This document shows, piece after piece, positions 5,101 to 63,890 of a DNA stretch of 64,000 bases. Where the stretch lies: contig OZ024760.1 of NCBI GenBank assembly GCA_964016885.1, positions 3,100,001 through 3,164,000 of the forward strand, given 5' to 3'. The position numbers and the translations under genes were made by a program. This DNA comes from Eledone cirrhosa. Its lineage: Eukaryota. The notes below the pieces were generated by a model. It saw only the letters and a program-made list of their open reading frames with translations. It searched no databases and was not told where the DNA came from. Positions within the stretch are counted from its first letter, which is position 1, and each line of letters opens with the position of its first letter.

Positions 5101-6519
5101 ATCGGTAGAGCGTCAGAGACTATGCGCTGCGGCATAGTTACGGCCCTTTATGTTCTGAGATCAAATCCCACCGAGGTTAGCTTTGCCTTTTGTCCTTACG
5201 GGGTCGATGAAATAAAGTACCAGTAATGCACTGGGGTTGATTTTTATCTACTTTCTCCTCCCGCCAAATTTCTGACCTTGTATCTAAATCAGAAACCATT
5301 ATTACTACCACCATGAGGGTGGTGGATTGGCAGAATCAGTCGAGCATCAAACTCTATACTTTCCAGCATAGAGTTATGTCCCTTTACGTTCTGAGTTCAA
5401 ATCCCGCCTAGGTTATCTCTGCCTTTCATCCTTACAAGATTGGTAAAATAAAGTACCAGTAATGCACTGGGGTTGATTTAATCGACTTTCTCCTCCCCCA
5501 ACCCCTATTGCTGGCATATAGTAGAAACCATTATTATTAGTGGATTGGCAGTATCGGTAGAGGGTCGGACGTCATACTTTGACGCATGGAGTTACGGCCC
5601 TTGCCATTCTGAGTTCAAATCCCGCCGAGGTTAACTTTGCCTTTCATCCTTACGGGGGTCGATAAAATAAAGTACCAGTAATGCACTGGGGTAATTGCTG
5701 GCCTTGTGCCAAAAGTAGAAACAATAGTACCAGTAATGCACTGGGTAATTGCTGGCCTTGTGCCTAAAGTAGAAACAATTATTAGGGTGGTGGGTTGGCA
5801 GTAATCGGTAGACCGTCAGACACCATGCTTAGCGGCATAAAGTTACGACCCTTTATGGTCTGTGTTCAAATCCCACCAAGGTTAACTTTGCCTTTCATCC
5901 TTACGGGGTCGATAAAATAAAGTACCAGTAATGCACTGGGATAATTGCTGGCGTTGTGCCTAAAGTAGAAACAATTATTATTATTATTATTAGGGTGGTG
6001 GGTTGGCAGTAATCGGTAGAGCGTCGGACACCATGCTTAGCGGCATAAAGTTATGACCCTTTATGGTCTGTGTTCAAATCCCACCAAGGTTAACTTTGCC
6101 TTTCATCCTTACGGGGGGGTCGATAAAATAAAGCACCAGTAATACACTGGGGTCGATTTAATAAACGTTCTCCTCCCCTCCAAATTGATGGCTTTGTGCC
6201 AATCGTATAAATCATTATTAATATTCTTTTCAATCTTTCTTGACTATGAACCATTTTAAAGGTTACAAGCTCAGCCAAGCAGCCTCATACATCACCCCTG
6301 TTCGATATCTCATCAGCTAATTGTCTGAAATATGATAACAGCACAATAAATATCACCACAGGATATCTTCTGCCTTTCAGCAAGGGTGAGTGGATTTAGT
6401 TTGTGTTTTTAATTTAGTGGAAAATACATACATATATATATATTTGCCACCATCATCACCATCACCATCACCACCATCATCATCACTATCATCACCACCA
6501 CCAGCATCATCATCATTAA

Positions 6520-6830: not shown

Positions 6831-9800
6831 CTATTGTCATCAACAACTTAGGTGTAGTGTCTATCACCCTCTCCCCTTTTTCCTTTTCTTTCTTTCGTAG
6901 CCTAATAATCCTTGCCTTTTCCCTTCTTTTCCTCTCATTTATAGCATTTATAGTTCTTTCCAATATTACTCTCTTTTTCTCTATATTTAACTAAATATCT
7001 TCTTCTTCGCCCACTTATTCCTGAGAGGGTCACGTGGGCAGAGTCCTCAAACACTCCCTCCATCAGGTCCTGTCAGAAGCAACTGTCTCTAACTGATCTG
7101 GCTGGATCCCCAAGCATCACCACCCAAGCTCTTGGATGTTATCCAACCATCTTACTAGATATCTACTCTTGGGTCTCCTACCTGTTGGTTTTGCCTGTAA
7201 AATCTGTCCAGCGATTCTTTCCTGAGACATTCTAACCCCATGTCCATAGTATCAGAGCTGTGATCTCTCAATTCAGAGAAGTAGTGGCTCTACCTGGAGT
7301 GACTCTCTGATCTCCGGGCTACAAATCTGTCCAGCGATTCTTTCCTGAGACATTCTAACCCCATGTCCATAGTATCAGAGCTGTGATCTCTCAATTCAGA
7401 GAAGTAGTGCCTCTACCTGGAGTGACTCTCTGATCTCCGAGCTACAAATCTGTCCATCGATTCTTTCCTGAGACATTCTAACCCCATGTCCATAGTATCG
7501 GAGCTGTGATCTCTCAATTCAAAGAAGTAGTGGCTCTACCTGGAGTGACTCACTGATCTCCGAGCTACAAATCTGTCCAGCGATTCTTTCCTGAGAGATT
7601 CTAACCACATGTCCATAGTATCGGAGCTGTGATCTCTCAATTCAGAGAAATAGTGGCTCTACCTGGAGTGACTCTCTGATCTCCAAGCTACAAATCTGTC
7701 CAGCGATTCTTTCCTGAGACATTCTAACCACATGCCCATAGTATCGGAGCTGTGATCTCTCAATTCAGAGAAATAGTGGCTCTACCTGGAGTGACTCTCT
7801 GATCTCCAAGCTACAAATCTGTCCAGCGATTCTTTCCTGAGACATTCTAACCACATGTCCATTATATCAGAGCTGTGATCTCTCAATTCAGAGAAGTAGT
7901 GCCTCTACCTGGAGTGACTCTCTGATCTCCGAGCTACAAATCTGTCCAGCGATTCTTTCCTGAGACATTCTAACCACATGTCTGTAATATCAGAGCTGTG
8001 ATCTCTCAATTCAGAGAAGTAGCGGCTCTACCTGGAGTGACTTGGCGATCAGAGAGACTAAATATTAAATTCTCTATGTAATTTTATCCTAGAAATATAT
8101 ATTACTCTGTTACATATTCCAACTGGCAGGCTGAGGCCATGCTGGGGCACCACCATTTGAGTATTTTGAAATAAAATGACTGAAATTTTTTGAAATTTTT
8201 TTCCTTATTTTGTAGATGAACATTATACAGAGATGGCAGTCCCTATGTTTGAAGGTTTTAAGAATGGTATGAATATATGAATATTTTTACAATTATGGTT
8301 GTTGTTGTTTTGCTATTGTTGCCATTGTTAATGTTGTTGTTGTTAATGCTGTTATTTTGTTGTTGTTATTGTTGTTAATGTTGTTTCTTTGCTGTTAATG
8401 TTGCTCTGGTTGTTGTTGCTTTACTGTTATTCTTGTTGTTGTTATTGTTCTTGTTGATGTTGGTGTTGTTGGTGTTGTTGTTAATGTTGATATTGTTGTT
8501 GCTTTCTTCTTGTTGTTCTTTCTTGTTCTTGTTGCTACTGTTGATGATGATGATGATGATAAATAAAGTGCTAATACAGGAATGGTGAATTGGTAGAATT
8601 GTTAAAGTGCTGGATAACAAGCTTGCCAGTGTCAGATCTGCTTCTGTGGTGCATTCTGAGTTGAAACCCGACTGAAGTCAACTTTGCCTTTCATCCTTTC
8701 GGGGTTTGATAAAGAGAGTAGTCATGCAGAGGTGGTTGATTAGCAGAACTGTTAAAAGGTTGCCCAGGTTGCCTGGCAGTATCTGATCGGGTTCTGTGCA
8801 TTTTTCTGAGAACAAATCCTGCCTGCTTCTGCAAAGAACTGGCAGACAGTATCAGCAATGGAAAGACCAATGGAAACATTGTTTTCTTGGTCAGATCTGA
8901 CAATCTACAGACAGTATCAGCAATGGAAAGACCAATGGAAACATTGTTTTCTTGGTCTGATCTGACAATCTACAGATAGTATCAGCAATGGAAAGACCAA
9001 TGGAAACATTGTTTTCTTGGTCTGATCTGACAATCTACAGATAGTATCAGCAATGGAAAGACCAATGGAAACATTGTTTCCTTGGTCTGATCTGACAATC
9101 TACAGACAGTATCAGCAATGGAAAGACCAATGGAAACATTGTTTTCTTGGTCTGATCTGACAATCTACAGATAGTATCAGCAATGGAAAGACCAATGGAA
9201 ACATTGTTTCCTTGGTCTGATCTGACAATCTACAGACAGTATCAGCAATGGAAAGACCAATGGAAACATTGTTTTCTTGGTCTGATCTGACAATCTACAG
9301 ACAGTATCAGCAATGGAAAGACCAATGGAAACATTGTTTTCTTGGTCTGATCTGACAATCTACAGATAGTATCAGCAATGGAAAGACCAATGGAAACATT
9401 GTTTTCTTGGTCTGATCTGACAATCTACAGATAGTATCAGCAATGGAAAGACCAATGGAAACATTGTTTCCTTGGTCTGATCTGACAATCTACAGACAGT
9501 ATCAGCAATGGAAAGACCAATGGAAACATTGTTTTCTTGGTCTGATCTGACAATCTACAGATAGTATCAGCAATGGAAAGACCAATGGAAACATTGTTTC
9601 CTTGGTCTGATCTGACAATCTACAGACAGTATCAGCAATGGAAAGACCAATGGAAACATTGTTTTCTTGGTCTGATCTGACAATCTACAGACAGTATCAG
9701 CAATGGAAAGACCAATGGAAACATTGTTTTCTTGGTCTGATCTGACAATCTACAGATAGTATCAGCAATGGAAAGACCAATGGAAACATTGTTTTCTTGG

Positions 9801-42800: not shown

Positions 42801-44531
42801 CATTGTTTTCTTGGTGTGATCTGACAATCTACAGACAGTATCAGCAATGGAAAGACCAATGGAAACATTGTTTTCTTGGTGTGATCTGACAATCTACAGA
42901 TAGTATCAGTAATGGAAAGACCAATGGAAACATTGTTTCCTTGGTCAGATCTGACAATCTACAGATAGTATCAGCAATGGAAAGACCAATGGAAACATTG
43001 TTTTCTTGGTGTGATCTGACAATCTACAGATAGTATCAGCAATGGAAAGACCAATGGAAACATAGTTTCCTTGGTCTGATCTGACAATCTACAGATAGTA
43101 TCAGCAATGGAAAGACCAATGGAAACATTGTTTCCTTGGTGTGATCTGACAATCTACAGATAGTATCAGCAATGGAAAGACCAATGGAAACATTGTTTCC
43201 TTGGTGTGATCTGACAATCTACAGATAGTATCAGCAATGGAAAGACCAATGGAAACATTGTTTCCTTGGTGTGATCTGACAATCTACAGATAGTATCAGC
43301 AATGGAAAGACCAATGGAAACATTGTTTTCTTGGTGTGATCTGACAATCTACAGATAGTATCAGCAATGGAAAGACCAATGGAAACATAGTTTCCTTGGT
43401 CTGATCTGACAATCTACAGATAGTATCAGCAATGGAAAGACCAATGGAAACATTGTTTCCTTGGTGTGATCTGACAATCTACAGATAGTATCAGCAATGG
43501 AAAGACCAATGGAAACATTGTTTCCTTGGTGTGATCTGACAATCTACAGATAGTATCAGCAATGGAAAGACCAATGGAAACATTGTTTCCTTGGTGTGAT
43601 CTGACAATCTACAGATAGTATCAGCAATGGAAAGACCAATGGAAACATTGTTTCCTTGGTGTGATCTGACAATCTACAGATAGTATCAGCAATGGAAAGA
43701 CCAATGGAAACATTGTTTCCTTGGTGTGATCTGACAATCTACAGATAGTATCAGCAATGGAAAGACCAATGGAAACATTGTTTCCTTGGTGTGATCTGAC
43801 AATCTACAGATAGTATCAGTAATGGAAAGACCAATGGAAACATTGTTTTCTTGGTCTGATCTGACAATCTACAGATAGTATCAGCAATGGAAAGACCAAT
43901 GGAAACATAGTTTCCTTGGTCAGATCTGACAATCTACAGACAGTATCAGCAATGGAAAGACCAATGGAAACATTGTTTTCTTGGTCTGATCTGACAATCT
44001 ACAGATAGTATCAGCAATGGAAAGACCAATGGAAACATTGTTTTCTTGGTCTGATCTGACAATCTACAGGTAGTATCAGCAATGGAAAGACCAATGGAAA
44101 CATTGTTTCCTTGGTCTGATCTGACAATCTACAGACAGTATCAGCAATGGAAAGACCAATGGAAACATTGCTTTCTGGAGGAGTTGCAACTACCAGTAGA
44201 TAGTATCAGTAATGGTAAGACCATTTTTTTTCTTTACTCATTTTTTCATATTTTGCTAAAGTAGCTACTTTGGATTCATTTACCATTTGCAGGTATTTGG
44301 AAAGAAATACAGGACTTAATCAGTGAGTACAGGAAGAAGTATTTGTTGAATGTTATTGTTGGCCCAGTCTTTGAGAAGAATACTGGGAATGGAACATTCG
44401 ACAATGTTGCTGTTACTGCAGCTCTAGTAAGGTGAGTACAGGGGAGGAGGTCTTCTTCTTCTTTGCCTTCTTCATCATCGTCGTCGTCGTCGTCGTCGTC
44501 GTCGTCATCATCATCATCATCATCATCATCA

Positions 44532-46529: not shown

Positions 46530-49500
46530 TCCTATGGCCTCTATAGCTATTCTATATCTCCTATAGTTTTCCTATAATCCATATAGATATATATCTATTA
46601 ACCACACAAACACATTACACTATTACATGTTCCAGCTGAAAGGCTGAGGCCATGCTGGGGCGCCATCATTGACATATAATTATATTTATTTTGCTTCAAT
46701 TTCAGATCTGAAGAAACCAATATGACATATATGATTCCTAGTCATTTTTATGTCATTTTGAGCAAATGCCAAGGAGGTGATGATAATCTTACAGAATGCA
46801 CAAACAATGCTGAGGTATTGTCGGTAATCCTTCCTCACACCAAAGAAGCCAGCAATTGTATGGTAAGCACTGATTGGGTAAAAGGGTAAAGACTCCCCTT
46901 CGGTCAGGACTGACCATGGGATTTGCACCTAGAAAGCTCCCTTCCGTGGCATAAGTCCAAGCAAGGTTATTTGCGGAAGACCTGTAGTCATCCATGTATA
47001 CCAGTCTCTCCCCCTCTCCATGCCACTGATGTTGTCCAAGGTAAAGGTTTTCAAAATAAATATCAAAATATATAATATTTATTCATACATAGTATATATT
47101 ATATTATATCATTTATTATATATAAATTAACAATATTATATATATTATATATTATTTACAATTTGCGTGTAGGTAGGTCTCTCTGGAAAAAGGGCTGGGG
47201 CGCGCTGAGGGTATTATGTGGCCGTGAAGTGGGGCAATGGCCCCAAAAGTTTCAGAACCTCTGCTCTATAGCTATGAAATACGTTTCACCAAATATATTT
47301 CATATAGGTTTATATACAGTTATCTTGAATAATGTTGTGTTAGTGCTAATCTTAATTTTAAATGTTTCTTTTCTGTTTTTTTATTTTACCTAAAAAAATG
47401 TCTTTAGAGTCCCAGAAAATATATTGAACAGTACCGATCTCGGGTACGAGACATTGAACTTTTGACTGGCATTGAGTTTTTGACAAATTTGTCCAAACCT
47501 GATTCTGTGAGGATGAGGACATTCCTACCTGTAGGACTTTGGGAAGGAGACCGTGTTTCCTCTTGGATGGAGTTACCATTCTGTGAGAAAAAGGATACAA
47601 GTCAGTGCAAAAATATATCAAAGGAGTACGTATACTATCTTTTTGCTTCGTAACTGTTTCTTCATTTCATTCACTATGCAAAGTATCAAAACTGCATCAA
47701 TTAATGGTTTTACTTTTATTTTATTTTACTGCAAACTTTCACTTTGATCTGTCACTAGGAAATATATTAAAAACCGAACATAAGCTGGTGACATCTGACT
47801 TTGAAAGAAATATATGCCAGCCTTCCATGTATATCTGTCATTGTATGTAAAAAGAGAGTAAGATTTGCTGGCCACTGCCATCGTGCCACCTATGAGCCTG
47901 TATCCCCATTAATGCCTTGAAAACCACAAGCAGTCACTAATAACAGGGGGCGCAGCTCTCCTATCCCAATGTCATCTTCAGAGATTCTTGTATTGAAATC
48001 CAGGATTTGGCAACGACAATGAACGATAGATCCACGTGGAGATCAATTGTTGAGTCAATGATGAAGATTTAAAATATATTTCCCAGAATTCCTGGCTAAT
48101 GTGGCTTCATGGGGTACAGGATATTAAGAATTAAAATGTTTCCCAGAATGCCTGGCTAATGTGGTTTCATGTGGTACAGGATATTAAGAATTAAAATGTT
48201 TCCCAGAATGCCTGGCTAATGTGGTTTCATGTGGTACAGGATGTTAAGAGTTAAAATATGTTTTACCTTTTTTTCTTTACAGTGGTCCTACCTTAATATT
48301 TATCTCGTTAGATGGATTCCGAGTAAGCTACATGAATAAGCATGTAACACCTGTAATTGATCGCCTCAGGCAGTGTGGAGTCCATAGTCCCTACATGAAA
48401 CCTGTGTTTCCCTCAATAACCTTCCCAAACCATTTCAGTATGGCGACCGTAAGTAATCTTTCCATAATTTCATACGATATAAACACATAAGTCCTACTCT
48501 CGTGTTATTAGACTTCAGTTAGAGTGAGTTAGAATGTTGAGGGGGAAGTTACATTTGACGCATGTCAAATCGCTTACGAGAAAGTAAAAAGGGATGTCAG
48601 GATAGGCATTGCTGTTGCATTTCCAGACAGCAAAGGTCCTCCTATGGCGCTGACATGCAGCATTTGTGCAAGACTCTGCCTCAGCAAATCTGGACTCGAA
48701 AGTCATCTTCGCAGTCATAAAGTGAGACCAGTGGTTGACTACCAGGCTGTTGTCAAAGATGCTACTCATCATGCCTGTCAAGCATGTGGAAGAGAGTGTA
48801 GCTCAGCAGGAGGGCTCAAACGACATGCAAGGGTACATGAACTCCAATCACAGCTGGCTATTGCCAGTGAATGTTTTGGTTGCCAACTCTGTGCAAGACA
48901 TTTTAGGTCATTGGCTGGGCTAAAAAGCCACATTCGATTGCAGCACCATTAATTATTAATATATATATTTTTTGTTTTGTTTTGTTTTTTCGTGCAATGG
49001 CCATACTCGATAATGAGGGGGCAGCCATCATCATCATCATCATCATCATTTAATATCTGCTTTCCCTGCTAGCAAGGGTTGGATGGGTCTACATAGACCA
49101 AGTCAGTACTGAAGCGGGGCCACTGAAGTCCCAGACAGACTGAGGAGGTATATATTCTGCTTATGTACAAATGATGCCATAAGGGCAAAAACGACAGTAA
49201 AAGTCTTTGCAAGGTATTTAACCCTTTACCATTTACAATACTCTATATATATACTATTATATTTTCATAGTAAAGGCTTTATCTCACATAATTATCTCAC
49301 ATAATATTGAATCTATGAGATTTTGAAAGTATTTATTTTGAGAACAATACCTTAACGTCAGTATGAGTGGCCAGTTACAGCCAGTTTGAACAGAAAGAGG
49401 TGAGAGAACTCTGGCTAGATATGGCCAGTTTAAATGCTCAAGGAATAAATTAATTATACATTTCTCAGGACATGGACAGTGCCAATCAGCACTATTATCT

Positions 49501-52387
49501 GCAGGTGCTTCACTTTCCAGGTATTTGATCCAAATATTTTTCAGTTCCCTTTTTTATCATTTCAAATGCTCCAACTGTCACAGGTATTGTTCAAGCCTTA
49601 ACCCTTTAGTGTTCAAACCGTCCAAAACCGGCCAGAATTCTCTACCTCTTTCTGTTGAAACTGGCTGTAACTGGTCACCCAAACTGATGTTAAGGTATTG
49701 TTTTCAAAATAAATACTTTCAAAATCTCATAGATTCGATATTATGTGAGATAATTATGTGAGGTAAAGCCTTTACCATTAAAATATAATAGTATATATAA
49801 AATAATGTGAATGCTTAAAGGGTTAAGATGCCTGATTTTCTCAGTCTCAGTTAGCAGATCTTTGTATTTACTGAGTTTTCAAAGCTCTTTCGAGATGTTA
49901 CAATCTGATGAATCCTTATGTCAGTTAAGAAGCATGTATTCATTTTATGGTCCTTCACAATTATATCAGATCTGTTGGCCTTGTGGCCTTGTTCTGTCAG
50001 TATTCACAGGGAAATCCCATAGGATTGTCCTGTTCATGCATCCTGTTTCTGAATCTGGGTGTTATTATTATTATTATTATTGGATTATTGGAAGGGAGAT
50101 GGTCGGACACCATGCTTTGCAGCATAGAGTTACGGCCCTTTACGGTCTGAGTTCAAATCCCGCCGTGGTTAACTTTGCCTTTCATCCTTACGAGGTCGAT
50201 AAAATAAAGCACCAGTAATGCACTGGGTAATTGCTGGCCTTGTGCCTAACGTAGAAACAATTATTATAATAATTTGTTAATTAACAGGGCCTCTATCCAG
50301 AAACTCATGGAATTATTGCCAACACTATGTTTGACATAAAACTCAATGCAAGCTTCAGAACACGCAGCACTGAGAATCATTGGTGGAATGCAGAACCGGT
50401 AAGAGAGAATACTTTCTCTGAATCTTCTTAAGATTATTGATACTCAAGCAAAACGCTACATATGATCTACTTATAGTAAAATTGTTGGACTGGTTTAGTA
50501 ATATAACTGATACTCAAGCAAAACACTACATATGATCTACTTATAGTAAAACTGTTGGAGTGGTTTAGTAATATAACTGATACTCAAGCAAAACGCTACA
50601 TATGATCTACTTATAGTAAAACTGTTGGAGTGGTTTAGTAATATAACTGATACTCAAGCAAAACGCTACATATGATCTACTTATAGTAAAACTGTTGGAC
50701 TGGTTTAGTAATATAACTGATACTCAAGCAAAACGCTACATATGATCTACTTATAGTAAAACTGTTGGACTGGTTTAGTAATATAACTGATACTCAAGCA
50801 AAACGCTACATATGATCTACTTATAGTAAAACTGTTGGACTGGTTTAGTAATATAACTGATACTCAAGCAAAACGCTACATATGATCTACTTATAGTAAA
50901 ACTGTTGGACTGGTTTAGTAATATAACTGATACTCAAGCAAAACGCTACATATGATCTACTTATAGTAAAACTGTTGGACTGGTTTAGTAATATAATTGA
51001 TACTCAAGCAAAACACTACAAATGATCTACTTATAGTAAAACTGTTGGACTGGTTTAGTAATATAACTGATACTCAAGCAAAACGCTACATATGATCTAC
51101 TTATAGTAAAACTGTTGGACTGGTTTAGTAATATAATTGATACTCAAGCAAAACACTACATATGATCTACTTATAGTAAAACTGTTGGACTGGTTTAGTA
51201 ATATAACTGATACTCAAGCAAAACACTACATATGATCTACTTATAGTAACACTGTTGGACTGGTTTAGTAATATAACTGATACTCAAGCAAAACACTACA
51301 TATGATCTACTTATAGTAAAACTGTTGGACTGGTTTAGTAATATAACTGATACTCAAGCAAAACGCTACATATGATTTACTTATAGTAAAACTGTTAGAC
51401 TGGTTTAGTAATATAACTGATACTCAAGCAAAATGCTACATATGATCTACTTATAGTAAAACTGTTGGACTGGTTTAGTAATATAACTGATACTCAAGCA
51501 AAACACTACATATGATCTACTTATAGTAAAACTGTTGGACTGGTTTAGTAATATAACTTAGCTTTATCATTATTAAGTTGACGTTTGGAACATAACTTAA
51601 TGAAGGTTAACATAGAATCATGATGGAAAGTTTTAGATAAATATAAAAATATTGTTTTCAAGTTGGTGCTTGGAACATAACTTAACAAAGGTTATTACAT
51701 TTTGGCAGTATCGGTAGAGGGTCGGACGCCATGCTTTCCAGCATAGTTACGTCCCTTTACGATCTGAGTTCAAATCCCGCCGAGGTTGACTTTGCCTTTC
51801 ATCCTTACGGGGTCGATAAAATAAAGTACCAGTAATACACTGGGTATTTGCTGGCCTTGTGCCTAACGTAGAAACAGTTATTACATTTATAATGGAAAGA
51901 TTTTAGATAAATATGAAAATATGGTTTAGTATTATAACTTAGCTTTCTCATAATTAAGTTGGTGTTTGGAACATAACTTAACAAAGGTTATTACATAAAA
52001 TTATGATGGAAGGTTTTTAGATAAATATAAACACTTTAAAACAAACAGCTTAGCCTTATAAAACAAGGGGTGGTTTCAGTTAGTTTCAAATTAAAAGGGT
52101 TAAATTCAGATAAATATTAAACTAGGTTGTTGTTGTTTTTTTGTAGGGGTAGGGGCAGGGTTATTATTTTGGGGGTTGTTTCAGGAAAAAAGACAGAAGG
52201 TTAATAACTATTTATTTTTTTTTAGATCTGGAAGAGATTAACAGATAATGGAATACAAACTGCATCTCTCTATCCTGGCAACACTGTAGAGAGTAAGTAT
52301 CACACACTCACACATTTATGTATGTATATATGCATACATATATATATATATATATATATATGTGTCTGTATATATACATACACACAC

Positions 52388-55068: not shown

Positions 55069-58000
55069 ATGTGCGCATACTAACATATATATATATATGT
55101 ATATACATATATATATGTGTTCATACACACACACTATATATGTTTTATTTTGTTTTCCTGCAGAAAATAGAGGAAATTTTTTCGAAAATTATAATCCGTG
55201 AGTATATGCTTTGTTTGCTATCACTATGATTCCTATATATATCCCTATGACCCCAATAGTTTTCCTAAAACTCCTATAGAGTTCCTATGGTCCTTCTATA
55301 TATCCATGTAACTCCTATAGATTTCCCTACAGCCCCTGTAGTTTCACTCTGACTCCTATAGTTGTTCCTATGATCCCTATTGTTTCTTTGTGGTCCCTAT
55401 AATTGTCCCTATTCCCCTATAATATCTCTGTGATCCCTATAGTTTCCCTATCACCCCTATAGTATTTCTCTGAACCCTATTGTTTCCCTATCAACTCTAT
55501 AGTTATCCACGTAACTGCCATGATTTTCCTATGACCCCTAATTTTTATTACTTTTCTTATTACGAATCCTTGCTTTTTTATAAATCCTGAAGGACTTTCC
55601 TAATTGTTATTCCTTCTTCTCTTAATCTTATAAATCCTTGTTTTTATTTGTTGGGGGGTGTTCCAATAAACCCTATTTCTGTCATGTGAAACCATGTGGC
55701 CCAATAGTTAAGGTGTTAGCTTTATGATCCTGTCTTCGATTCCTAGCAGCACATTGTGTCCTTGAGCAACACACTTTACTTCATGGTGCTCCAGTCTACT
55801 CAGCTGGTAAAAATGCATTATACCAGTAATTTCAAAGGGGGTTGTAGCTAGCTTTGTCATACACTCTGCTTCGTTGGTTCTCCCTGGCAACTATGTTGAT
55901 GGTACACAGGTCTGTGGAATGGTTAGTCACTTGTACATCAATGTCACAAGTAGGCTGGAACAGTCTTTGTTGGAACCAGCAGAGGTCCAGCGAATTGTGG
56001 GCATGTGCAACTTTTATCCCACACGTCAAATTGTAAATCCTATTAAATCCACATGAACTATTCTGCTTTATAAACACATTTCTCACAGTACTTTATAAAC
56101 ACACATCTCACAGTACTTTATAAACACACATATCACAGTACTTTATAAACACACATATCACAGTACTTTATAAACATATATCTCACAGTACTTTATAAAC
56201 ATACATCTCACAGTACTTTATAAACATATATCTCACAGTACTTTATAAACATATCTCACACTGCTTCACATGAACTATACTACTTTATAAACACACATCT
56301 CACAATACTTTATAAACACACATCTCACAGTACTTTATAAACACACATCTCACAGTACTTTATAAACAAATATCTCACAGTACTTTATAAACATATCTCA
56401 CACTACTTCACATGAATTATACTACTTTATAAACACACATCTCACAATACTTTATAAACACACATCTCACAGTACTTTATAAACATCTCACACTGCTTCA
56501 CATAAACTATACTCCTTTTATAAACACACATCTCACAGTACTTTATAAACACACATCTCACAGTACTTTATAAACACACATCTCACAGTACTTTATAAAC
56601 ACATACCTCATAATACTTTATAAACACATATCTTACAGTACTTTATAAACACATACCTCATAATACTTTATAAACACATATCTTACAGTACTTTATAAAC
56701 ACATATCTCACACTGCTTCACATGAACTATTACTACTTTATAAACATATCTCACAGTACTATATAAACACTATATGAACTATACTGCTTTATATTTTTAG
56801 GGTAAAGTCTTTTGAAGACAACATAGATAAAGCTGTCACATGGATTAAAAATGGTGTGAGATTTGTTAGCCTTTATTTTGAACAACCAGACGAATCTGGC
56901 CACAGACGTGGACCATTTTCAGCAAAGGTTTGTTGAAGGTTTTGTCACTTTCATCATGAGCGTTTAACTCTTTCTTGATCATATTCCTAAAGAAATACTC
57001 TATTTTATTTAATTAACCCTTTAGCATTTACATTACTCTATATATACTATTGTATTTTCATGGTAAAGGCTTTATCTCAGATAATTATCTCGCATAATAT
57101 GAAAGCTAAGAAATTTTGATATTATTTTTTTTTAGAAAAATACTTTAACATAAGTATTAGCAGCCAGTTATGGCTGGTTTGAATAGGAAGTGGTGAGAGA
57201 ATTCTGGCCGGATAAAACTGGTTTAAATGCAAAAGGGTTAAAGAAGAATTTAGAAGGGATTTACTAAAATGTTTAATTATTTCATTATAAAGAGAGTATT
57301 CGTAGTAGTTTTTCACACATCCATGGATGCAAAACCTTGGACACTTTCTCAGTGTTATGTCCTGGAGTCACAGTTAGAAGGATTTACTAAATTATTTCAT
57401 TATTAAAATAGTATTTTTAGTATAACTTAAGTTTATCATATCAAATCATGTTTAAAGGTTTTTATTTATCGACATAGGAACGGTTTTAAATGGGTGGTTT
57501 TGTTTTTTACACATGTGTGTATATACATATACATAATATACATAAACACATACACACACACATATATATATATATATACGGTGTGTAGGAAAGGCGTAGG
57601 TAGAAACTCCATTTTATGTCCTAAATGCAAAGTATGGGTGCATAAAAGATGTAGTGGGATCACAGGTAAGCTAACTAAGAACATAGATTTTACATGTGGC
57701 CGGTGTTCTGGTGCAATAAGTAGCAGCAAGTGCCCACAAAATACTAGCTCTTTCAATTGCGCAGAGGGTTCTATAGAGGGTTCTTCCGTTACCTGGGCGA
57801 TAAAATCAGCAGTGGGGGAGGGTGCTCTGAAAGTACTGTAGCTAGAGTCAGAACTGGTTGGAAAAAGTTCAGAGAGCTTATACCACTATTAGCTGCTAAA
57901 GGGTTCTCCCTAAAAATGAAAGGCAGGTTGTACGATGCCTGCATACGAACAGCAATGTTGCATGGCAGTGAGACCTGGGCATTGTGTGCAGAGGATATAT

Positions 58001-58717
58001 GCAGACTAGAGAGGAACGAAGCTTGCATGCTCCGCTGGATGTGTAACAGTAATATACGTGAACGGCAAAGCATAAACGAACTAAGGAAAAAATTAGAGAT
58101 AAGAGGGATCAGATGTTGTTTACTCGAGAGAAGGCTACGTTGGTATGGACATGTGATGCGCATGAAAGTCGATAGCTGTATAACAAAGTGCAGGGCAATA
58201 AAGATAGACGGTAGCCACGGAATAGGCAGACCTAGAAAAACCTGGGACGAGCTGATAAACTCCGACCTCACACACTTACACCTCTCCAAGACAATGTCAC
58301 TGGACCGAGACCTTTGGCGGTACTCAGTAACAGAGAAGACCCGCCTTGCCAGTAGGCATCTCTAACAAAATACACCCCGTCCCGCCACCACCACCACCCC
58401 ATCCACACCACCTCGTTCTATGTAAAGTTATGTTGGTGCCGCGCCATCCAGGCCGAAACAAATGAGATTGTGTAGGTGTCACGACAAGAAAACACACAGT
58501 CCACGCTGTAATGTGGCCGTGTAGGCAACACGGTAAAAACCTCCCAGACCCACACTGTAAATGTGGTTGGTGTTAGGAAGGGCATCCAACTGTAGAAAAC
58601 CTGCCAGACAGTCCTATGCGAGCAAGACAATCACTCTTGCCTCAAGTGGGACTACCCCCATCCAAACCCATGCAAGCGTGGAACACGGACGTTAAACGTT
58701 GATGATGATGATGATGA

Positions 58718-59211: not shown

Positions 59212-60550
59212 AAAATTGAATGGGAACAAAACAGAGAGACAGTACGAACAAAGGTTTATTATATATATATATATATAAAAGATGAGATAAGATAAGGGCT
59301 TCATGATGATTTCTCTGGAATGAAACAGTTCTAGTCCTGTAGAAGCCTTTTCTATATCAAATATATATATATATATACATACATACACACACACACACTT
59401 ATATATATATATATTAGATATTAGTTTAACAATGATAATAATAACAAGGGCAAGTTATTTTATATATTCATTTTATTGTTTTATGATCGTTTCGGAGAGT
59501 TGATCATATTGATATATTGACTGATCTATAACACATCTAGACCACAATGTATATATATATATATATATACTAGCTCTTTCAACTGCGCAGAGGGTTCTAT
59601 AGAAATAGTGGACAGCTTCCGTTACCTGGGTGACAAAATCAGCAGTGGGGGAGGGTGCTCTGAAAGTACAGTAGCTAGAGTCAGAACTGGATAGAAAAAG
59701 TTCAGAGAGCTTATACCACTATTAGCCGCTAAAGGGTTCTCCCTAAAAATGAAAGGCAGGTTGTATGATGCCTGCATACGAACAGCAATGTTGCATGGCA
59801 GTGAGACCTGGGCATTGTGTGCAGAGGATATACGCAGACTAGAGAGGAACGAAGCTTGCATGCTCCGCTGGATGTGTAACAGTAATATACGTGAACGGCA
59901 AAGCATAAACGAACTAAGGAAAAAATTAGAGATAAGAGGGATCAGATGTTGTTTACTCGAGAGAAGGCTACGTTGGTATGGACACGTGATGCGCATGAAA
60001 GTCGATAGCTGTATAACAAAGTGCAGGGCAATAACGATAGACGGTAGCCACGGAATAGGCAGACCTAGAAAAACCTGGGACGAGCTGATAAACTCCGACC
60101 TCACACACTTACACCTCTCCAAGACAATGTCACTGGACCGAGACCTTTGGCGGTACTCAGTAACAGAGAAAACCCGCCTTGCCAGTAGGCATCTCTAACA
60201 AATAACACCCCGTCCCGCCACCACCCCCACCCCATCCACACCACCCCGTTCTATGTAAAGTTATGTTGGTGCCGCGCCATCCAGGCCGAAACAAATGAGA
60301 TCGTGTAGGTGTCACGACAAAAAAACACACAGTCCACGCTGTAATGTGGCCGTGTAGGCAACACGGTAAAAACCTCCCAGACCCACACTGTAAATGTGGT
60401 TGGTGTTAGGAAGGGCATCCAACTGTAGAAAACCTGCCAGACAGCCCTATGCGAGCAAGACAATCACTCTTGCCTCAAGTGGGACTACCCCCGTCCAAAC
60501 CCATGCAAGCGTGGAACACGGACGTTAAACGTTGATGATGATGATGATGA

Positions 60551-61850: not shown

Positions 61851-62420
61851 AAGGCGTGTGGCTGAGTGGTTAGAGTATTGGATTCACAATCGTGAGGTTG
61901 TGAGTTCGATTCCTGAACCAGGCGATGCGTTATGTCCTTGAGCAAGACACTTTATTTCACGTTGCTCCTTCTACCTGGAGTTGCGACCGATAGATAGTAT
62001 TAGCAATTGGAAAGACCAACGGAAACATAGTTTCCTCGGTCCGATTTGACGAAAGTCGATCGACTAGAATATATATATATAGTGAAAAATTGAACGGGAA
62101 CAAAACAGAGAGACAGTACGAACAAAGGTTTATTATATATATATATAAAAGATGAGATAAGATAAGGGCTTCATGATGATTTCTCTGGAATGAAACAGTT
62201 CTAGTCCTGTAGAAGCCTTTTCTATATCAAATATATATATATATATATATACATACATACACACACACACACTTATATATATATATATTAGATATTAGTT
62301 TAACAATGATAATAATAACAAGGACAAGTTATTTTATATATTCATTTTATTGTTTTATGATCGTTTCGGAGAGTTGATCATATTGATATATTGACTGATC
62401 TATAACACATCTAGACCACA

Positions 62421-62482
<62 letters not shown>

Positions 62483-63491
62483 TAGCTCTTTCAACTGCGC
62501 AGAGGGTTCTATAGAAATAGTGGACAGCTTCCGTTACCTGGGTGACAAAATCAGCAGTGGGGGAGGGTGCTCTGAAAGTACAGTAGCTAGAGTCAGAACT
62601 GGTTGGAAAATGTTCAGAGAGCTTATACCACTATTAGCCGCTAAAGGGTTCTCCCTAAGAATGAAAGGCAGGTTGTATGATGCCTGCATACGAACAGCAA
62701 TGTTGCATGGCAGTGAGACCTGGGCATTGTGTGCAGAGGATATACGCAGACTAGAGAGGAACGAAGCTTGCATGCTCCGCTGGATGTGTAATAGTAATAT
62801 ACGCGAACGGCAAAACATAAATGAACTAAGGAAAAAATTAGAAATAAGAGGGATCAGATGTTGTTTACTCGAGAGAAGGCTACGTTGGTATGGTCATGTG
62901 ATGCGCATGAAAGACGACAGCTGTATAGCAAAGTGCAGGGCAATAAAGATAGACGGTAGCCACGGAGTAGGCAGACCCAGAAAAACCTGGGACGAGCTGA
63001 TAAATTCCGACCTCACACACTTACACCTCTCCAAGACAATGTCACTGGACCGAGACCTTTGGCGGTACTCAGTAATAGAGAAGACCTGCCTTACCTAAAT
63101 ACAAAGTAAAACCTACTACAGTCAGTAGGCATCTCTAACAAAATACACCCCCGTCCCACCACCCACACCCCCATCCACACCGCCCCTTTCAATGTAAAGT
63201 TATGTTGGTGCCACAACATCCAGGCCGAAACAAATGAGATCGTGTAGGTGTCACGACAAAAAAACACACAGTCCACGCTGTAATGTGACCATGTAGGCAA
63301 CACGGTAAAAACCTCCCAGTCCCACACTGTAAATGTGGTTGGTGTTAGGAAGGGCATCCAACTGTAGAAAACCCGCCAGACACTCCTATGCGAGCAAGAC
63401 AACCACTCTTGCCTCAAGTGGGAAAACTCCCGTCCAAACCCATGCAAGCGTGGAACATGGACGTTAAACGATGATGATGATGATGATGATG

Positions 63492-63691: not shown

Positions 63692-63890
63692 ACCCTTCTC
63701 CTACATCCATTATCAAATTTGTTTACCAAACAAGAGCAAATCCCAATTAAACTATATTACATTTTAAATATATTTTTTCAGGTTGTTAAGGCACTAAAAT
63801 CAATCGATCACACTATTGGTGTATTGATGAACAAATTATTTGATGAAGGTCTGGAAAATTGTATTGATATTGTGATTGTAGCAGATCATG
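1964..63890 (+). CDS. ENPP: Multi-exon ENPP1/2/3-like gene, partial (both ends outside window): NUC domain followed in frame by a PDE domain; 12 exons listed separately
   Basis: Manual splicing at AG/GT sites gives a stop-free frame with ENPP motifs [86 protein letters not shown]. All 11 intron phases are compatible. Confidence 0.93.
2779..2999 (+). mobile_element. tRNA-head CORE-type SINE with satellite-related 3' tail, copy 1
   Basis: A box TGGCTGAGTGG, B-box-like GAGTTTGATTCC, CORE-like TGTCCTTGAGCAAGGCACTT; flanked by (TA)n; homologous to 46242 and 61847. Confidence 0.85.
3029..3376 (+). mobile_element. tRNA-head CORE-type SINE with RTE-like 3' tail ending in (GAT)n
   Basis: A/B boxes, CORE-like block, tail GGTTGGTGTTAGGAAGGGCATCCAGCTGTAG shared with the RTE copies; homologous to 58856 and 61492. 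Confidence 0.85.
3567..3680. repeat. (GAT/AAT)n microsatellite
   Basis: Direct reading. Confidence 0.9.
4460..4693 (-). mobile_element. Degenerate tRNA/CORE-type SINE
   Basis: Reverse complement reads GGCATGTGGCCTAGTGG...GGTTCAATTCC...TGTGTTCTTAAGCAAAACACTT. Confidence 0.75.
4790..6220 (+). mobile_element. Head-to-tail cluster of about 8 tRNA-derived SINE copies (Meta/MESC-like domain)
   Basis: Repeated GGATTGGCAGAATCGG...GAGTTCAAATCCCGCC GAGGTTAACTTTGCCTTTCATCCTTACGGGGTCGATAAAATAAAGTACCAG...(ATT)n. Domain name is recalled, not searched. Confidence 0.85.
6262..6385 (+). CDS. ENPP: ENPP exon B: [41 protein letters not shown]
   Basis: AG at 6260-61, donor G|GTGAG at 6386; phase 0 to 1. Resembles ENPP C..Y....NITYGFLYPP. 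Confidence 0.8.
6447..6846. repeat. (CAT/CAC)n microsatellite
   Basis: Direct reading. Confidence 0.95.
7010..7320 (-). mobile_element. RTE-clade LINE 3' fragment, degraded
   Basis: Minus strand reads [45 protein letters not shown]...RWLDNI...DRT*WR, the typical RTE ORF C-terminus. Confidence 0.75.
7200..8042. repeat. 123-bp tandem repeat, about 7 copies, derived from LINE coding sequence
   Basis: AATCTGTCCA recurs at 7201, 7324, 7447, 7570, 7693, 7816 and 7939. Confidence 0.95.
8216..8266 (+). CDS. ENPP: ENPP exon C: (D)[16 protein letters not shown]
   Basis: T-rich tract plus TAG acceptor, donor G|GTATG; phase 1 to 1. Matches ENPP TSNIVPMY..FK. Confidence 0.85.
8297..8560. repeat. (GTT/GAT)n low-complexity tract
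   Basis: Direct reading. Confidence 0.9.
8846..44170. repeat. Intronic 65-bp satellite array, about 543 copies (about 35.3 kb); unit AYAGTATCAGYAATGGAAAGACCAATGGAAACATTGTTTYCTTGGTSTGATCTGACAATCTACAG
   Basis: Strict 65-bp period (e.g. 9301 and 9366), single orientation, few variable positions. Confidence 0.99.
44293..44431 (+). CDS. ENPP: ENPP exon D: (G)[45 protein letters not shown]
   Basis: CAG acceptor, donor AG|GTGAGT; phase 1 to 2. Matches ENPP IW......KY....NVVSGPVFD region. Confidence 0.9.
44452..45060. repeat. Compound microsatellite tract: (CAT/CGT)n, (CTT/CCT)n, (CA/TA/TG)n
   Basis: Direct reading. Confidence 0.9.
45190..46219 (-). mobile_element. 5'-truncated RTE-clade LINE: ORF C-terminus plus 3' UTR and (GAT)n tail
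   Basis: ORF 45695-46132 [20 protein letters not shown]...[11 protein letters not shown]...GRPRKTW; near-identical to the copies at 57.6, 59.6 and 62.5 kb. Confidence 0.92.
46242..46460 (+). mobile_element. CORE-type SINE with satellite-related tail, copy 2
   Basis: Homologous to 2779-2999; sits within (TA)n. Confidence 0.85.
46706..46862 (+). CDS. ENPP: ENPP exon E: (R)[52 protein letters not shown]
   Basis: CAG acceptor, donor ATG|GTAAG; phase 2 to 0. Matches IPTHFF.VLTSC...L.FILPH...ESC. Confidence 0.92.
46878..47048. mobile_element. Probable interspersed repeat fragment
   Basis: GC-richer segment GTAAAGACTCCCCTTCGGTCA...GCACCTAGAAAG resembling a common octopus retroelement tail (recalled, unverified). 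Confidence 0.4.
47408..47625 (+). CDS. ENPP: ENPP exon F, end of NUC plus linker: [72 protein letters not shown]
   Basis: TAG acceptor, donor GA|GTACGT; phase 0 to 2. Contains the ARVRDVELLTGLDF...LKTYLP C-terminal motif followed by an SW...C......C pre-PDE linker. Confidence 0.9.
48072..48258. repeat. 60-bp tandem repeat, about 3 copies
   Basis: TCCCAGAATGCCTGGCTAATGTGG recurs at 48081, 48141 and 48201. Confidence 0.92.
48283..48448 (+). CDS. ENPP: ENPP exon G, PDE start: (D)[55 protein letters not shown]
   Basis: CAG acceptor, donor ACC|GTAAGT; phase 2 to 0. Has the SLDGFR Zn ligand and the catalytic Thr in TFPNH. Confidence 0.95.
48515..49049 (+). mobile_element. Probable LINE (RTE-like) 3' end encoding three C2H2 zinc fingers
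   Basis: ORF 48644-48952 has CSIC..HLRSH, CQAC..HARVH and CQLC..HIRLQH, followed by a short 3' UTR and a (CAT)n tail. No usable place in the ENPP splice chain. Confidence 0.65.
49218..49448 (+). mobile_element. piggyBac-like MITE copy (right end degenerate)
   Basis: Starts TTAA-CCCTTT; homologous to 57013-57241. Confidence 0.75.
49598..49826 (-). mobile_element. piggyBac-like MITE copy, inverted relative to 49218
   Basis: TTAA-CCCTTT...AAAGGG-TTAA ends; interior is the reverse complement of the 49218 copy. Confidence 0.8.
50085..50268 (+). mobile_element. Meta/MESC-like SINE ending just before the exon H acceptor
   Basis: Same body as the 4790-6220 cluster. Confidence 0.8.
50288..50398 (+). 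CDS. ENPP: ENPP exon H: [37 protein letters not shown]
   Basis: CAG acceptor, donor CCG|GTAAG; phase 0 to 0. Matches GLYPESHGII.N.MYD motif. Confidence 0.95.
50437..51558. repeat. 70-bp minisatellite, about 16 copies
   Basis: TATGATCTACTTATAGTAAA recurs every 70 bp (50461, 50531...). Confidence 0.97.
51702..51883 (+). mobile_element. Meta/MESC-like SINE
   Basis: Same family body. Confidence 0.8.
52226..52292 (+). CDS. ENPP: ENPP exon I: [22 protein letters not shown]
   Basis: Poly-T plus TAG acceptor, donor A|GTAAGT; phase 0 to 1. Aligns to ENPP IW.T...QGLK..TFFWPGSDV. Confidence 0.85.
52300..52771. repeat. Compound (TA/CA)n repeat with a higher-order unit; resumes at 53380-53492
   Basis: Recurrent CATACACACACTATTATATA and GTGTCTGTATA blocks. 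Confidence 0.9.
52772..53379 (-). mobile_element. About 600-bp GC-richer insertion in (TA)n, possibly a LINE 5' region
   Basis: Sharp composition change with the same compound repeat on both sides; minus strand has CTAGGAGAAGGAAAACTCTGA, reminiscent of RTE 5' UTRs. Confidence 0.45.
53491..53706. repeat. Foldback inverted repeat (about 80-bp arms, about 55-bp spacer), MITE-like
   Basis: AAACAATGCACTAGAAAGAAAATTAAAATTGCTAAGATAACAAAA versus TTTTGTTATCTTAGCAATTTTTATTTTCTTTCCAGTGCATTGTTT. Confidence 0.85.
54268..54982. mobile_element. Meta/MESC-like SINE cluster: one - copy (54268-54455) and two + copies (54588-54982)
   Basis: Family body on both strands; 29-bp head segment triplicated at 54600-54685. 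Confidence 0.8.
55164..55197 (+). CDS. ENPP: ENPP micro-exon J (34 nt): (K)[10 protein letters not shown](P)
   Basis: TTTTCCTGCAG acceptor, donor CC|GTGAGT; phase 1 to 2 exactly bridges exons I and K. Aligns to ENPP P..Y..YN. Confidence 0.8.
55228..55542. repeat. Degenerate short-period repeat (CCCTATAGTTTCC-like)
   Basis: Recurrent CCTATAG/CCTATGA motifs; similar remnants near 45065 and 46530. Confidence 0.65.
55692..55810 (+). mobile_element. Degenerate CORE-type SINE
   Basis: TGTGGCCCAATAGTTAAG...TTCGATTCC...TGTGTCCTTGAGCAACACACTT. Confidence 0.7.
56050..56792. repeat. About 25-bp minisatellite (CAGTACTTTATAAACACACATCTCA) with an interspersed variant unit
   Basis: 25-bp period (56111, 56136, 56161...); runs up to the exon K acceptor. 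Confidence 0.92.
56801..56927 (+). CDS. ENPP: ENPP exon K: [42 protein letters not shown]
   Basis: TTTTTAG acceptor, donor AAG|GTTTGT; phase 2 to 0. Has the YxEEPDxxGH Zn-binding motif. Confidence 0.93.
57013..57241 (+). mobile_element. Complete piggyBac-like MITE (about 220 bp)
   Basis: TTAA target duplications and CCCTTTAGCATTTA / TAAATGCAAAAGGG terminal inverted repeats. Confidence 0.85.
57578..58720 (+). mobile_element. RTE-clade LINE copy A (5'-truncated, frameshifted near 57778) with a Cys/His-rich PHD-like segment
   Basis: [26 protein letters not shown]...FTCGRC, then FRYLG...GSETW...LRWYGH; (GAT)n tail. Confidence 0.92.
58856..59169 (+). mobile_element. CORE-type SINE with RTE-like tail
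   Basis: Homologous to 3029; nearly identical to 61492-61808. Confidence 0.85.
59294..59350 (+). ncRNA. Type I hammerhead-ribozyme-like motif with a variant core, copy 1
   Basis: Stem I AAGGGCTTC/GAAGCCTTT, core ATGATGA...GAAA, stem III ACAG/CTGT, GUA triplet. C3 is replaced by A. Confidence 0.5.
59569..60553 (+). mobile_element. RTE-clade LINE copy B (premature TAG near 59691)
   Basis: Near-identical to copies A and C. Confidence 0.92.
60589..61378. mobile_element. About 790-bp insertion with identical direct terminal repeats of about 175 bp
   Basis: 60589-60763 matches 61204-61378; flanked by (TA)n. Confidence 0.75.
61492..61808 (+). mobile_element. CORE-type SINE with RTE-like tail (duplicate of 58856)
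   Basis: Near identity including upstream flank. Confidence 0.85.
61847..62070 (+). mobile_element. CORE-type SINE with satellite-related tail, copy 3
   Basis: Homologous to 2779 and 46242; absent from the paralogous (TA)n site at 59170-59207. Confidence 0.87.
62164..62220 (+). ncRNA. Hammerhead-like motif, copy 2
   Basis: Identical to 59294-59350. Confidence 0.5.
62481..63493 (+). mobile_element. RTE-clade LINE copy C (5'-truncated)
   Basis: ORF to 63098 [10 protein letters not shown]...GRPRKTW, plus 3' UTR and (GAT)n. Confidence 0.92.
63782..63890 (+). CDS. ENPP: ENPP exon L: [37 protein letters not shown]
   Basis: TTTTTTCAG acceptor, donor G|GTGAG. Has the (S/A)DHG Zn-binding motif. 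Confidence 0.95.

Follow-up and report, generated by a model that had tools for sequence, protein, structure and literature searches.

The splice joint between positions 47625 and 48283 of the window (the whole 64,000-nt stretch analysed, C21:3,100,001-3,164,000 of Eledone cirrhosa) is real, and connects the end of a second NUC domain (NUC2) to the start of a third phosphodiesterase domain (PDE3) within one ENPP gene. The layout of this gene is a membrane anchor followed by three PDE-NUC modules. Its product is most probably an ecto-nucleotide pyrophosphatase anchored in the membrane, whose module 3 would cleave extracellular nucleotides and whose modules 1 and 2 would be folded pseudo-enzymes.

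The junction exon and the complete gene

The frame at 47408-47650 is open for 81 codons and closed by a TAA. Within it, exon F (47408-47625, + strand), the last exon of unit 2, carries the C-terminal end of NUC2 and a W..C..C linker (LW..SW..C......C) in a single frame, as an earlier sequence-only reading of this DNA had proposed. In a PDB search, query residues 6-43 of exon F were aligned to the C-terminal end of ENPP NUC domains, the best match being the snake-venom PDE 5gz4 (residues 786-825 of 830, E 4.9e-5), followed by ENPP3, ENPP1 and ENPP2. The best-scoring splice leads from the donor GA/gtacgt at 47625 to the acceptor ttacag/T at 48283, and removes a phase-2 GT-AG intron of 657 nt (47626-48282, + strand) between modules 2 and 3; the fitting script permitted GT/GC-AG ends only, so that canonical ends are no independent test. 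The first PDE3 exon (48283-48448, + strand) holds the codons of a Zn-ligand Asp (48311) and of the Thr nucleophile (48419), and its part from 48284 to 48448 covers positions 1-53 of the Pfam Phosphodiest domain (PF01663) with an E value of 2e-19.

This joint, predicted by the same reading, was recovered exactly in run X4 (kind not on record), where a single 350-nt contig of depth 3.1 aligns as 47407-47625 plus 48283-48409 with zero mismatches and gaps. The depth of X4 is zero in the intron bin 47633-47743, and runs X1-X3 cross the intron uninterrupted, as genomic DNA. Since the contig skips the intron exactly, X4 is taken as cDNA. The matching part of a second X4 contig coincides exactly with the exon at 50288-50398. 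Direct read support for splicing in E. cirrhosa amounts to one junction in one contig of one run, and the 47625/48283 joint is not among the rows listed in a further read table.

Ahead of exon F, NUC2 starts in the window at 1964-2140 (unit 2, exon 12 of 17) and continues at 6262-6385 and 8216-8266, these three exons being placed by tblastn with the O. sinensis orthologue and splice fitting; two further splice-fitted exons follow, one with a degenerate EF-hand-like motif (44293-44431) and one encoding the Cys that is predicted to form the bond with PDE2 (46706-46862). The 36-kb NUC2 intron between the exons at 8216-8266 and 44293-44431 (8267-44292) contains a 65-bp satellite array of about 544 copies with 97% matches (8843-44175), for which the list of open reading frames also reveals a higher period of 195 bp. 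Beyond the junction, PDE3 is continued by the splice-fitted exon at 50288-50398, by 52226-52292, in which the insertion loop begins, by a 34-nt micro-exon (55164-55197; score 95, against 58 for the runner-up) coding for the nucleotide-type insertion loop with its Tyr, and by the exons at 56801-56927 and 63782-63890, which carry Zn-ligand Asp and His codons at 56889 and 56901, and at 63884 and 63887, respectively. All these exons are on the + strand. Two observations concern the introns of PDE3: the one after its first exon contains a 139-codon frame (48533-48949) in which three motifs resemble C2H2 zinc fingers, and which probably belongs to a repeat in view of its very high depth in the DNA runs; another contains three similar fragments (57748-58362, 59695-60195 and 62415-63095), which look like the 3'-terminal part of a LINE-type reverse transcriptase.

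The first PDE3 exon has three matches on contig C21, and the gene as a whole spans 276 kb (C21:2,907,604-3,183,784, + strand), starting more than 190 kb before the window and ending about 19.8 kb beyond it. The O. bimaculoides models and O. sinensis XP_029649912.1 were reached by a search with the PDE start exon, and every exon of both orthologues (2,163 aa in O. sinensis, 2,111 aa in O. bimaculoides) was located on the same strand, with the order preserved. Together with the spliced contig, this agrees with the earlier view that two adjacent genes are unlikely. The splice-fitted model comprises 54 exons, i.e. three N-terminal ones followed by three units of 17 exons, with the identical intron-phase string 2,0,0,1,2,0,1,1,2,0,1,0,0,1,1,2,0 in each unit and, at equal positions, a micro-exon of 34 nt in all three and an 88-nt exon. 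Upstream PDE modules thus exist, pointing to duplication and not permutation; the internal duplication (PDE-NUC)-(PDE-NUC) put forward from the sequence stands as a duplication, with three modules instead of two.

The model is 2,145 residues long without its ATG exon, for which a sequence-only search of 37.6 kb upstream gave no convincing match, and is 72% identical to each Octopus orthologue. A single hydrophobic segment, at residue 27, is predicted by hydropathy to be a type II transmembrane anchor, as in ENPP1/3, and no second anchor segment precedes module 2 or 3. Three PDE domains of the alkaline-phosphatase fold (PF01663; residues 79-436, 770-1124 and 1457-1824) are each followed by a NUC domain (508-751, 1180-1431 and 1895-2145), the NUC-after-PDE order being that of ENPP1-3, which have a single such unit per chain. 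The SMB domains, of which ENPP1-3 have two at the N-terminus, were absent from a Pfam scan of the 2,111-aa orthologue, in keeping with the earlier reading; in our own model, of which only the first exon is missing, 78 residues with 3 Cys lie ahead of PDE1. The two Cys predicted to link PDE and NUC are retained by every module. The EF-hand-like motif is clear in NUC3, partial in NUC1 and degenerate in NUC2. As a separate observation, an octopod NUC1 exon has DIGH/NTGH where the other modules have no His, with a downstream Asn kept and a Glu seemingly missing, a pattern resembling the DRGH motif of active non-specific endonucleases.

Some irregularities were met in the available models. In the newer RefSeq models, the O. 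bimaculoides gene is divided into two, the break falling within PDE2 rather than between modules, and a PDE2 exon present in O. sinensis and Eledone is missing from all three O. bimaculoides models, which suggests an assembly gap. In E. cirrhosa, the assembled first NUC1 exon (C21:3,033,269-3,033,480) is frameshifted relative to the orthologues and was translated with X; no second copy of it was found in the assembly.

Catalytic state of the three modules

Six Zn ligands and a nucleophile, either Thr or Ser, are needed for ENPP catalysis (PMC8808174, in part). Seven catalytic columns (D,T,D,H,D,H,H) were scored, at which the Eledone modules 1, 2 and 3 read GTVEDHS (3/7), HSDHDHF (4/7) and DTDHDHH (7/7), respectively. 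Module 1 has lost four of the six Zn-binding Asp/His, and module 2 the first Asp (replaced by His) and the last His, with four ligands kept and Ser in place of Thr. The scores of modules 1-3 are 2, 3 and 7 in both O. sinensis and O. bimaculoides, and 3, 5 and 7 in cuttlefish, while module 3 of Argonauta scores 7; each of the eight coleoid modules 1-2 examined misses at least two of the seven residues. As for the other lophotrochozoan modules (n = 53), 48 are at 7/7, four are gapped at a site and one (Mactra module 3) is degraded, so that 48 of the 49 gap-free ones are intact; Patella module 1 and Dreissena module 2, from proteins that joined the comparison afterwards, are likewise degraded. 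The multi-catalytic ectonucleotidase suggested by the sequence-only reading therefore does not hold for this animal, two of its modules lacking catalytic residues, though by residue content the label would fit the bivalve, gastropod and chiton proteins. Only the outermost module is predicted to work, modules 1 and 2 of octopus and cuttlefish being likely inactive.

The dead PDEs are judged not to be decaying, because they are conserved as strongly as the live one: identity to O. sinensis is 73% for PDE1, 77% for PDE2 and 77% for PDE3. The predicted structure of O. bimaculoides module 1 aligns with human ENPP1 (6weu) along 737 columns, at an E value of 9e-55 and an rmsd of 3.7, and matches ENPP3 structures as well. 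The structure models have a pTM of 0.72 and 0.71 and a pLDDT of 71-81 at the junctions, with no inter-module error given, and hint at ordered module junctions. Residual activity of module 2 is possible, since four ligands are kept, with His for Asp and Ser for Thr; the nucleophile of ENPP6 is a Ser (PMC8808174, in part).

Module 3 has the Tyr-bearing insertion loop and a Phe following the nucleophile, as in ENPP1/3, and does not show the deletion of this loop that marks ENPP2: the aligned ENPP2 has no loop where module 3 has one. The equivalence of the Tyr and Phe was read from the ENPP3 alignment. Two of the three ENPP1 Lys-claw positions appear to be changed in module 3 (Ile, Thr), which makes its substrate preference uncertain.

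Distribution and history of the tandem array

A search for long relatives, restricted to proteins of 1,161-3,695 aa, gave 32 matches, 29 of which carry two to four PDE-NUC modules; these belong to 22 named molluscs (bivalves, gastropods, the chiton Liolophura and two octopuses), the leech Helobdella and six unnamed Logan proteins. The remaining three are two fish proteins and one single-PDE protein. A HMMER search with exon F yielded 30 matches, with four new long ones (Dreissena, Mizuhopecten, Patella and the annelid Owenia), the short ones being mostly unnamed fragments. In neither search, both of limited reach, was a multi-module protein found outside molluscs and annelids, and the junction motif RT(F/Y)LP..LW..W..C..C..P.LL.SLDG recurs across these two phyla. 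In the cluster with a Sepia pharaonis fragment, 11 of the 15 listed members (35 read) are 2,129-2,135 aa long, on contigs of 6.7-7.1 kb; these cuttlefish contigs would be spliced full-length mRNAs, since such a length is too short for introns. A word-index search with exon F, whose range excluded proteins above 2,000 aa, had no match at E ≤ 0.001, and only single-module ENPP clusters were present in the ESM Atlas.

No other PDE-plus-NUC gene was found in this genome by NUC-end and PF01663 searches, the NUC-end search having matched this gene only and recovered two of its three NUC ends, so that divergent copies may escape it. Three other PF01663 loci were observed, at C9:39.28 Mb, C9:10.56 Mb and C8:1.06 Mb. 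No NUC match lies within the 50 kb examined around the loci on C8 and C9, which are probably of the ENPP4-7 type; the gene at C9:39.28 Mb seems to have a damaged, incomplete copy at C9:10.56 Mb.

The sequence-only reading had left it undecided whether such an architecture was known. It turned out to be common among the long relatives, and no account of a tandem PDE-NUC ENPP was found in the literature covered, which included few subscription papers and no supplements. Six gene or protein identifiers return 0 papers, the layout goes unmentioned in passages of PMC6635378, PMC6368272, PMC5554399, PMC4460706, PMC10121219 and PMC7943599, and public models carry automatic names only. In zebra mussel, an ENPP with a nuclease domain was reported to be up 4.6-fold in plasma after poly I:C (PMC7148315, in part), and may belong to the tandem family.

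Three module trees were built, one of 69 rows, one of a 31-row subset of these and one of 31 rows with Patella, Dreissena and Owenia added, the vertebrate row being an ENPP2. In all three, the cuttlefish and octopod versions of each coleoid module (1, 2 and 3) are orthologues (support 99-100 in two trees), and the triplication hence predates the split of these two lineages. Cuttlefish and octopods also share the Asp-to-Gly and His-to-Ser changes of module 1. Later re-duplications are seen in Mya, Littorina and Liolophura in the 69-row tree. The deep branches are unstable: the C-terminal modules of coleoids, bivalves and gastropods are grouped at 97 in the tree with Patella, Dreissena and Owenia and not in the other two, and an AU test did not reject a separate cephalopod triplication (p 0.27), so that the trees do not establish that the array arose only once. 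A single lophotrochozoan origin may nevertheless be proposed from the shared junction motif. The same pair of changes, first Zn-ligand Asp to Gly and last Zn-ligand His to Ser with SDHG kept, occurs in coleoid module 1, Mactra module 3 and Patella module 1, and the modules with this pair sit at three places in the tree.

Competing readings and relation to known ENPPs

Among the competing readings, an actual frameshift in NUC1 would leave no full-length protein, module 3 being made from a shorter transcript or the gene being in decay. The frameshift is indeed present in the sole assembled copy, and the spliced evidence from X4 is confined to exons near the module 2/3 junction; against this, the remaining 53 exons have open frames and share about 72% identity with the orthologues, the upstream modules have no excess divergence, and the break falls at a short single-base run, a usual place for an assembly error, all of which makes this reading improbable. 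An enzyme with all three modules active is about as hard to defend, or slightly harder. It agrees with the residues of most bivalve, gastropod and chiton proteins and with the D, H, D, H and nucleophile Ser retained in Eledone module 2, but conflicts with the ligands missing from modules 1 and 2 here and with the deficits in every coleoid module 1 or 2 examined.

That the gene encodes a venom phosphodiesterase for the posterior salivary gland is highly improbable: the RefSeq name 'venom phosphodiesterase 2-like' of the O. bimaculoides models, which appears to be a similarity-based annotation, and the snake-venom PDE among the PDB matches would speak for it, whereas the membrane anchor is retained, orthologues exist in filter-feeding bivalves, and the literature on ENPP, octopus and salivary gland, as far as its passages go, concerns ENPP6 and a snail ENPP5. 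A salivary or venom role of the Eledone gene has no support. Least credible of all are two neighbouring ENPP genes joined by annotation or by rare read-through, an idea that could draw on the in-frame TAA met after the donor if the intron is retained, and on the RefSeq split of the O. bimaculoides locus. It is contradicted by the X4 contig, by full-length cuttlefish and oyster contigs, by the LW..W..C..C junction repeated in molluscs and annelids, and by the single anchor.

Under the preferred reading of one anchored pyrophosphatase, the junction would lie between modules 2 and 3 in a type II membrane protein with a predicted length of ~2,150 residues, presumably encoded by one full-length transcript in E. 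cirrhosa and ordered as an anchor, a short Thr-rich stalk and three PDE-NUC modules. The outermost module would hydrolyse extracellular nucleotides, and the two inner ones would be inactive, folded spacers or binding units; their most likely role may be that of a stalk in place of SMB domains, keeping the active site off the membrane. Because it keeps the insertion loop absent from autotaxin, module 3 is expected to have ENPP1/3-type chemistry, with two Zn and a Thr nucleophile, acting on ATP (to AMP and PPi), dinucleoside polyphosphates and possibly cGAMP. The array would have been born by tandem duplication of a 17-exon unit, and an ancestral molluscan protein likely had all modules active, two of which were lost in coleoids. 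It is also conceivable, although rather unlikely, that the dead modules are repurposed as metal-poor nucleotide-sensing or partner-binding domains, controlling the live module or signalling via the anchor; the recurrence of one pair of substitutions in three separate modules hints at a binding or regulatory role of this kind.

The protein shares with vertebrate ENPP1 and ENPP3 the type II anchor, the PDE-lasso-NUC unit with a W..C..C linker ahead of the PDE, the insertion loop, the seven catalytic residues (in module 3), the PDE-NUC Cys pair and an inactive NUC (PMC8808174, in part), and differs from them in the absence of SMB domains, in having three PDE-NUC units per chain and in two units missing catalytic residues. 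With ENPP2 (autotaxin) it has in common the PDE-NUC unit and the catalytic residues; ENPP2 is secreted and without the loop found in octopus module 3, and lysophospholipase D activity is for that reason not expected. The same architecture and junction motif are found in the orthologues O. sinensis XP_029649912.1, oyster LOC105325428, Dreissena LOC127876504 and Helobdella ESO05851.1, although tandem mollusc and annelid ENPPs vary from two to four modules, most of them intact outside coleoids. Receptor tyrosine phosphatases (D1/D2), lactase-phlorizin hydrolase and the JAK pseudokinase likewise combine an active domain with conserved dead copies; their folds are unrelated, and the comparison may serve as an analogy for regulation or scaffolding only. 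The novelty is one of arrangement of known parts and not of chemistry: judged by its residues, the last module would work like ENPP1/3, and the protein falls outside the definition of ENPP1-3 in its number of modules and in having no SMB domains.

ENPP1-3 are regarded as enzymes with one module, and the architecture of two to four modules in Mollusca and Annelida has gone unrecognised in public gene models. As the sole PDE-plus-NUC gene found in this genome, the gene described here is a likely candidate for the tasks of ENPP1/3, such as extracellular ATP clearance, the supply of pyrophosphate for shell or statolith mineral control, and cGAMP breakdown. Should the dead modules prove to be repurposed, an ancient multi-module ectoenzyme would have given rise more than once to a new ENPP pseudo-enzyme function. 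The dead-dead-live form of coleoids is a natural experiment on the function left to an ENPP module when catalysis is gone.
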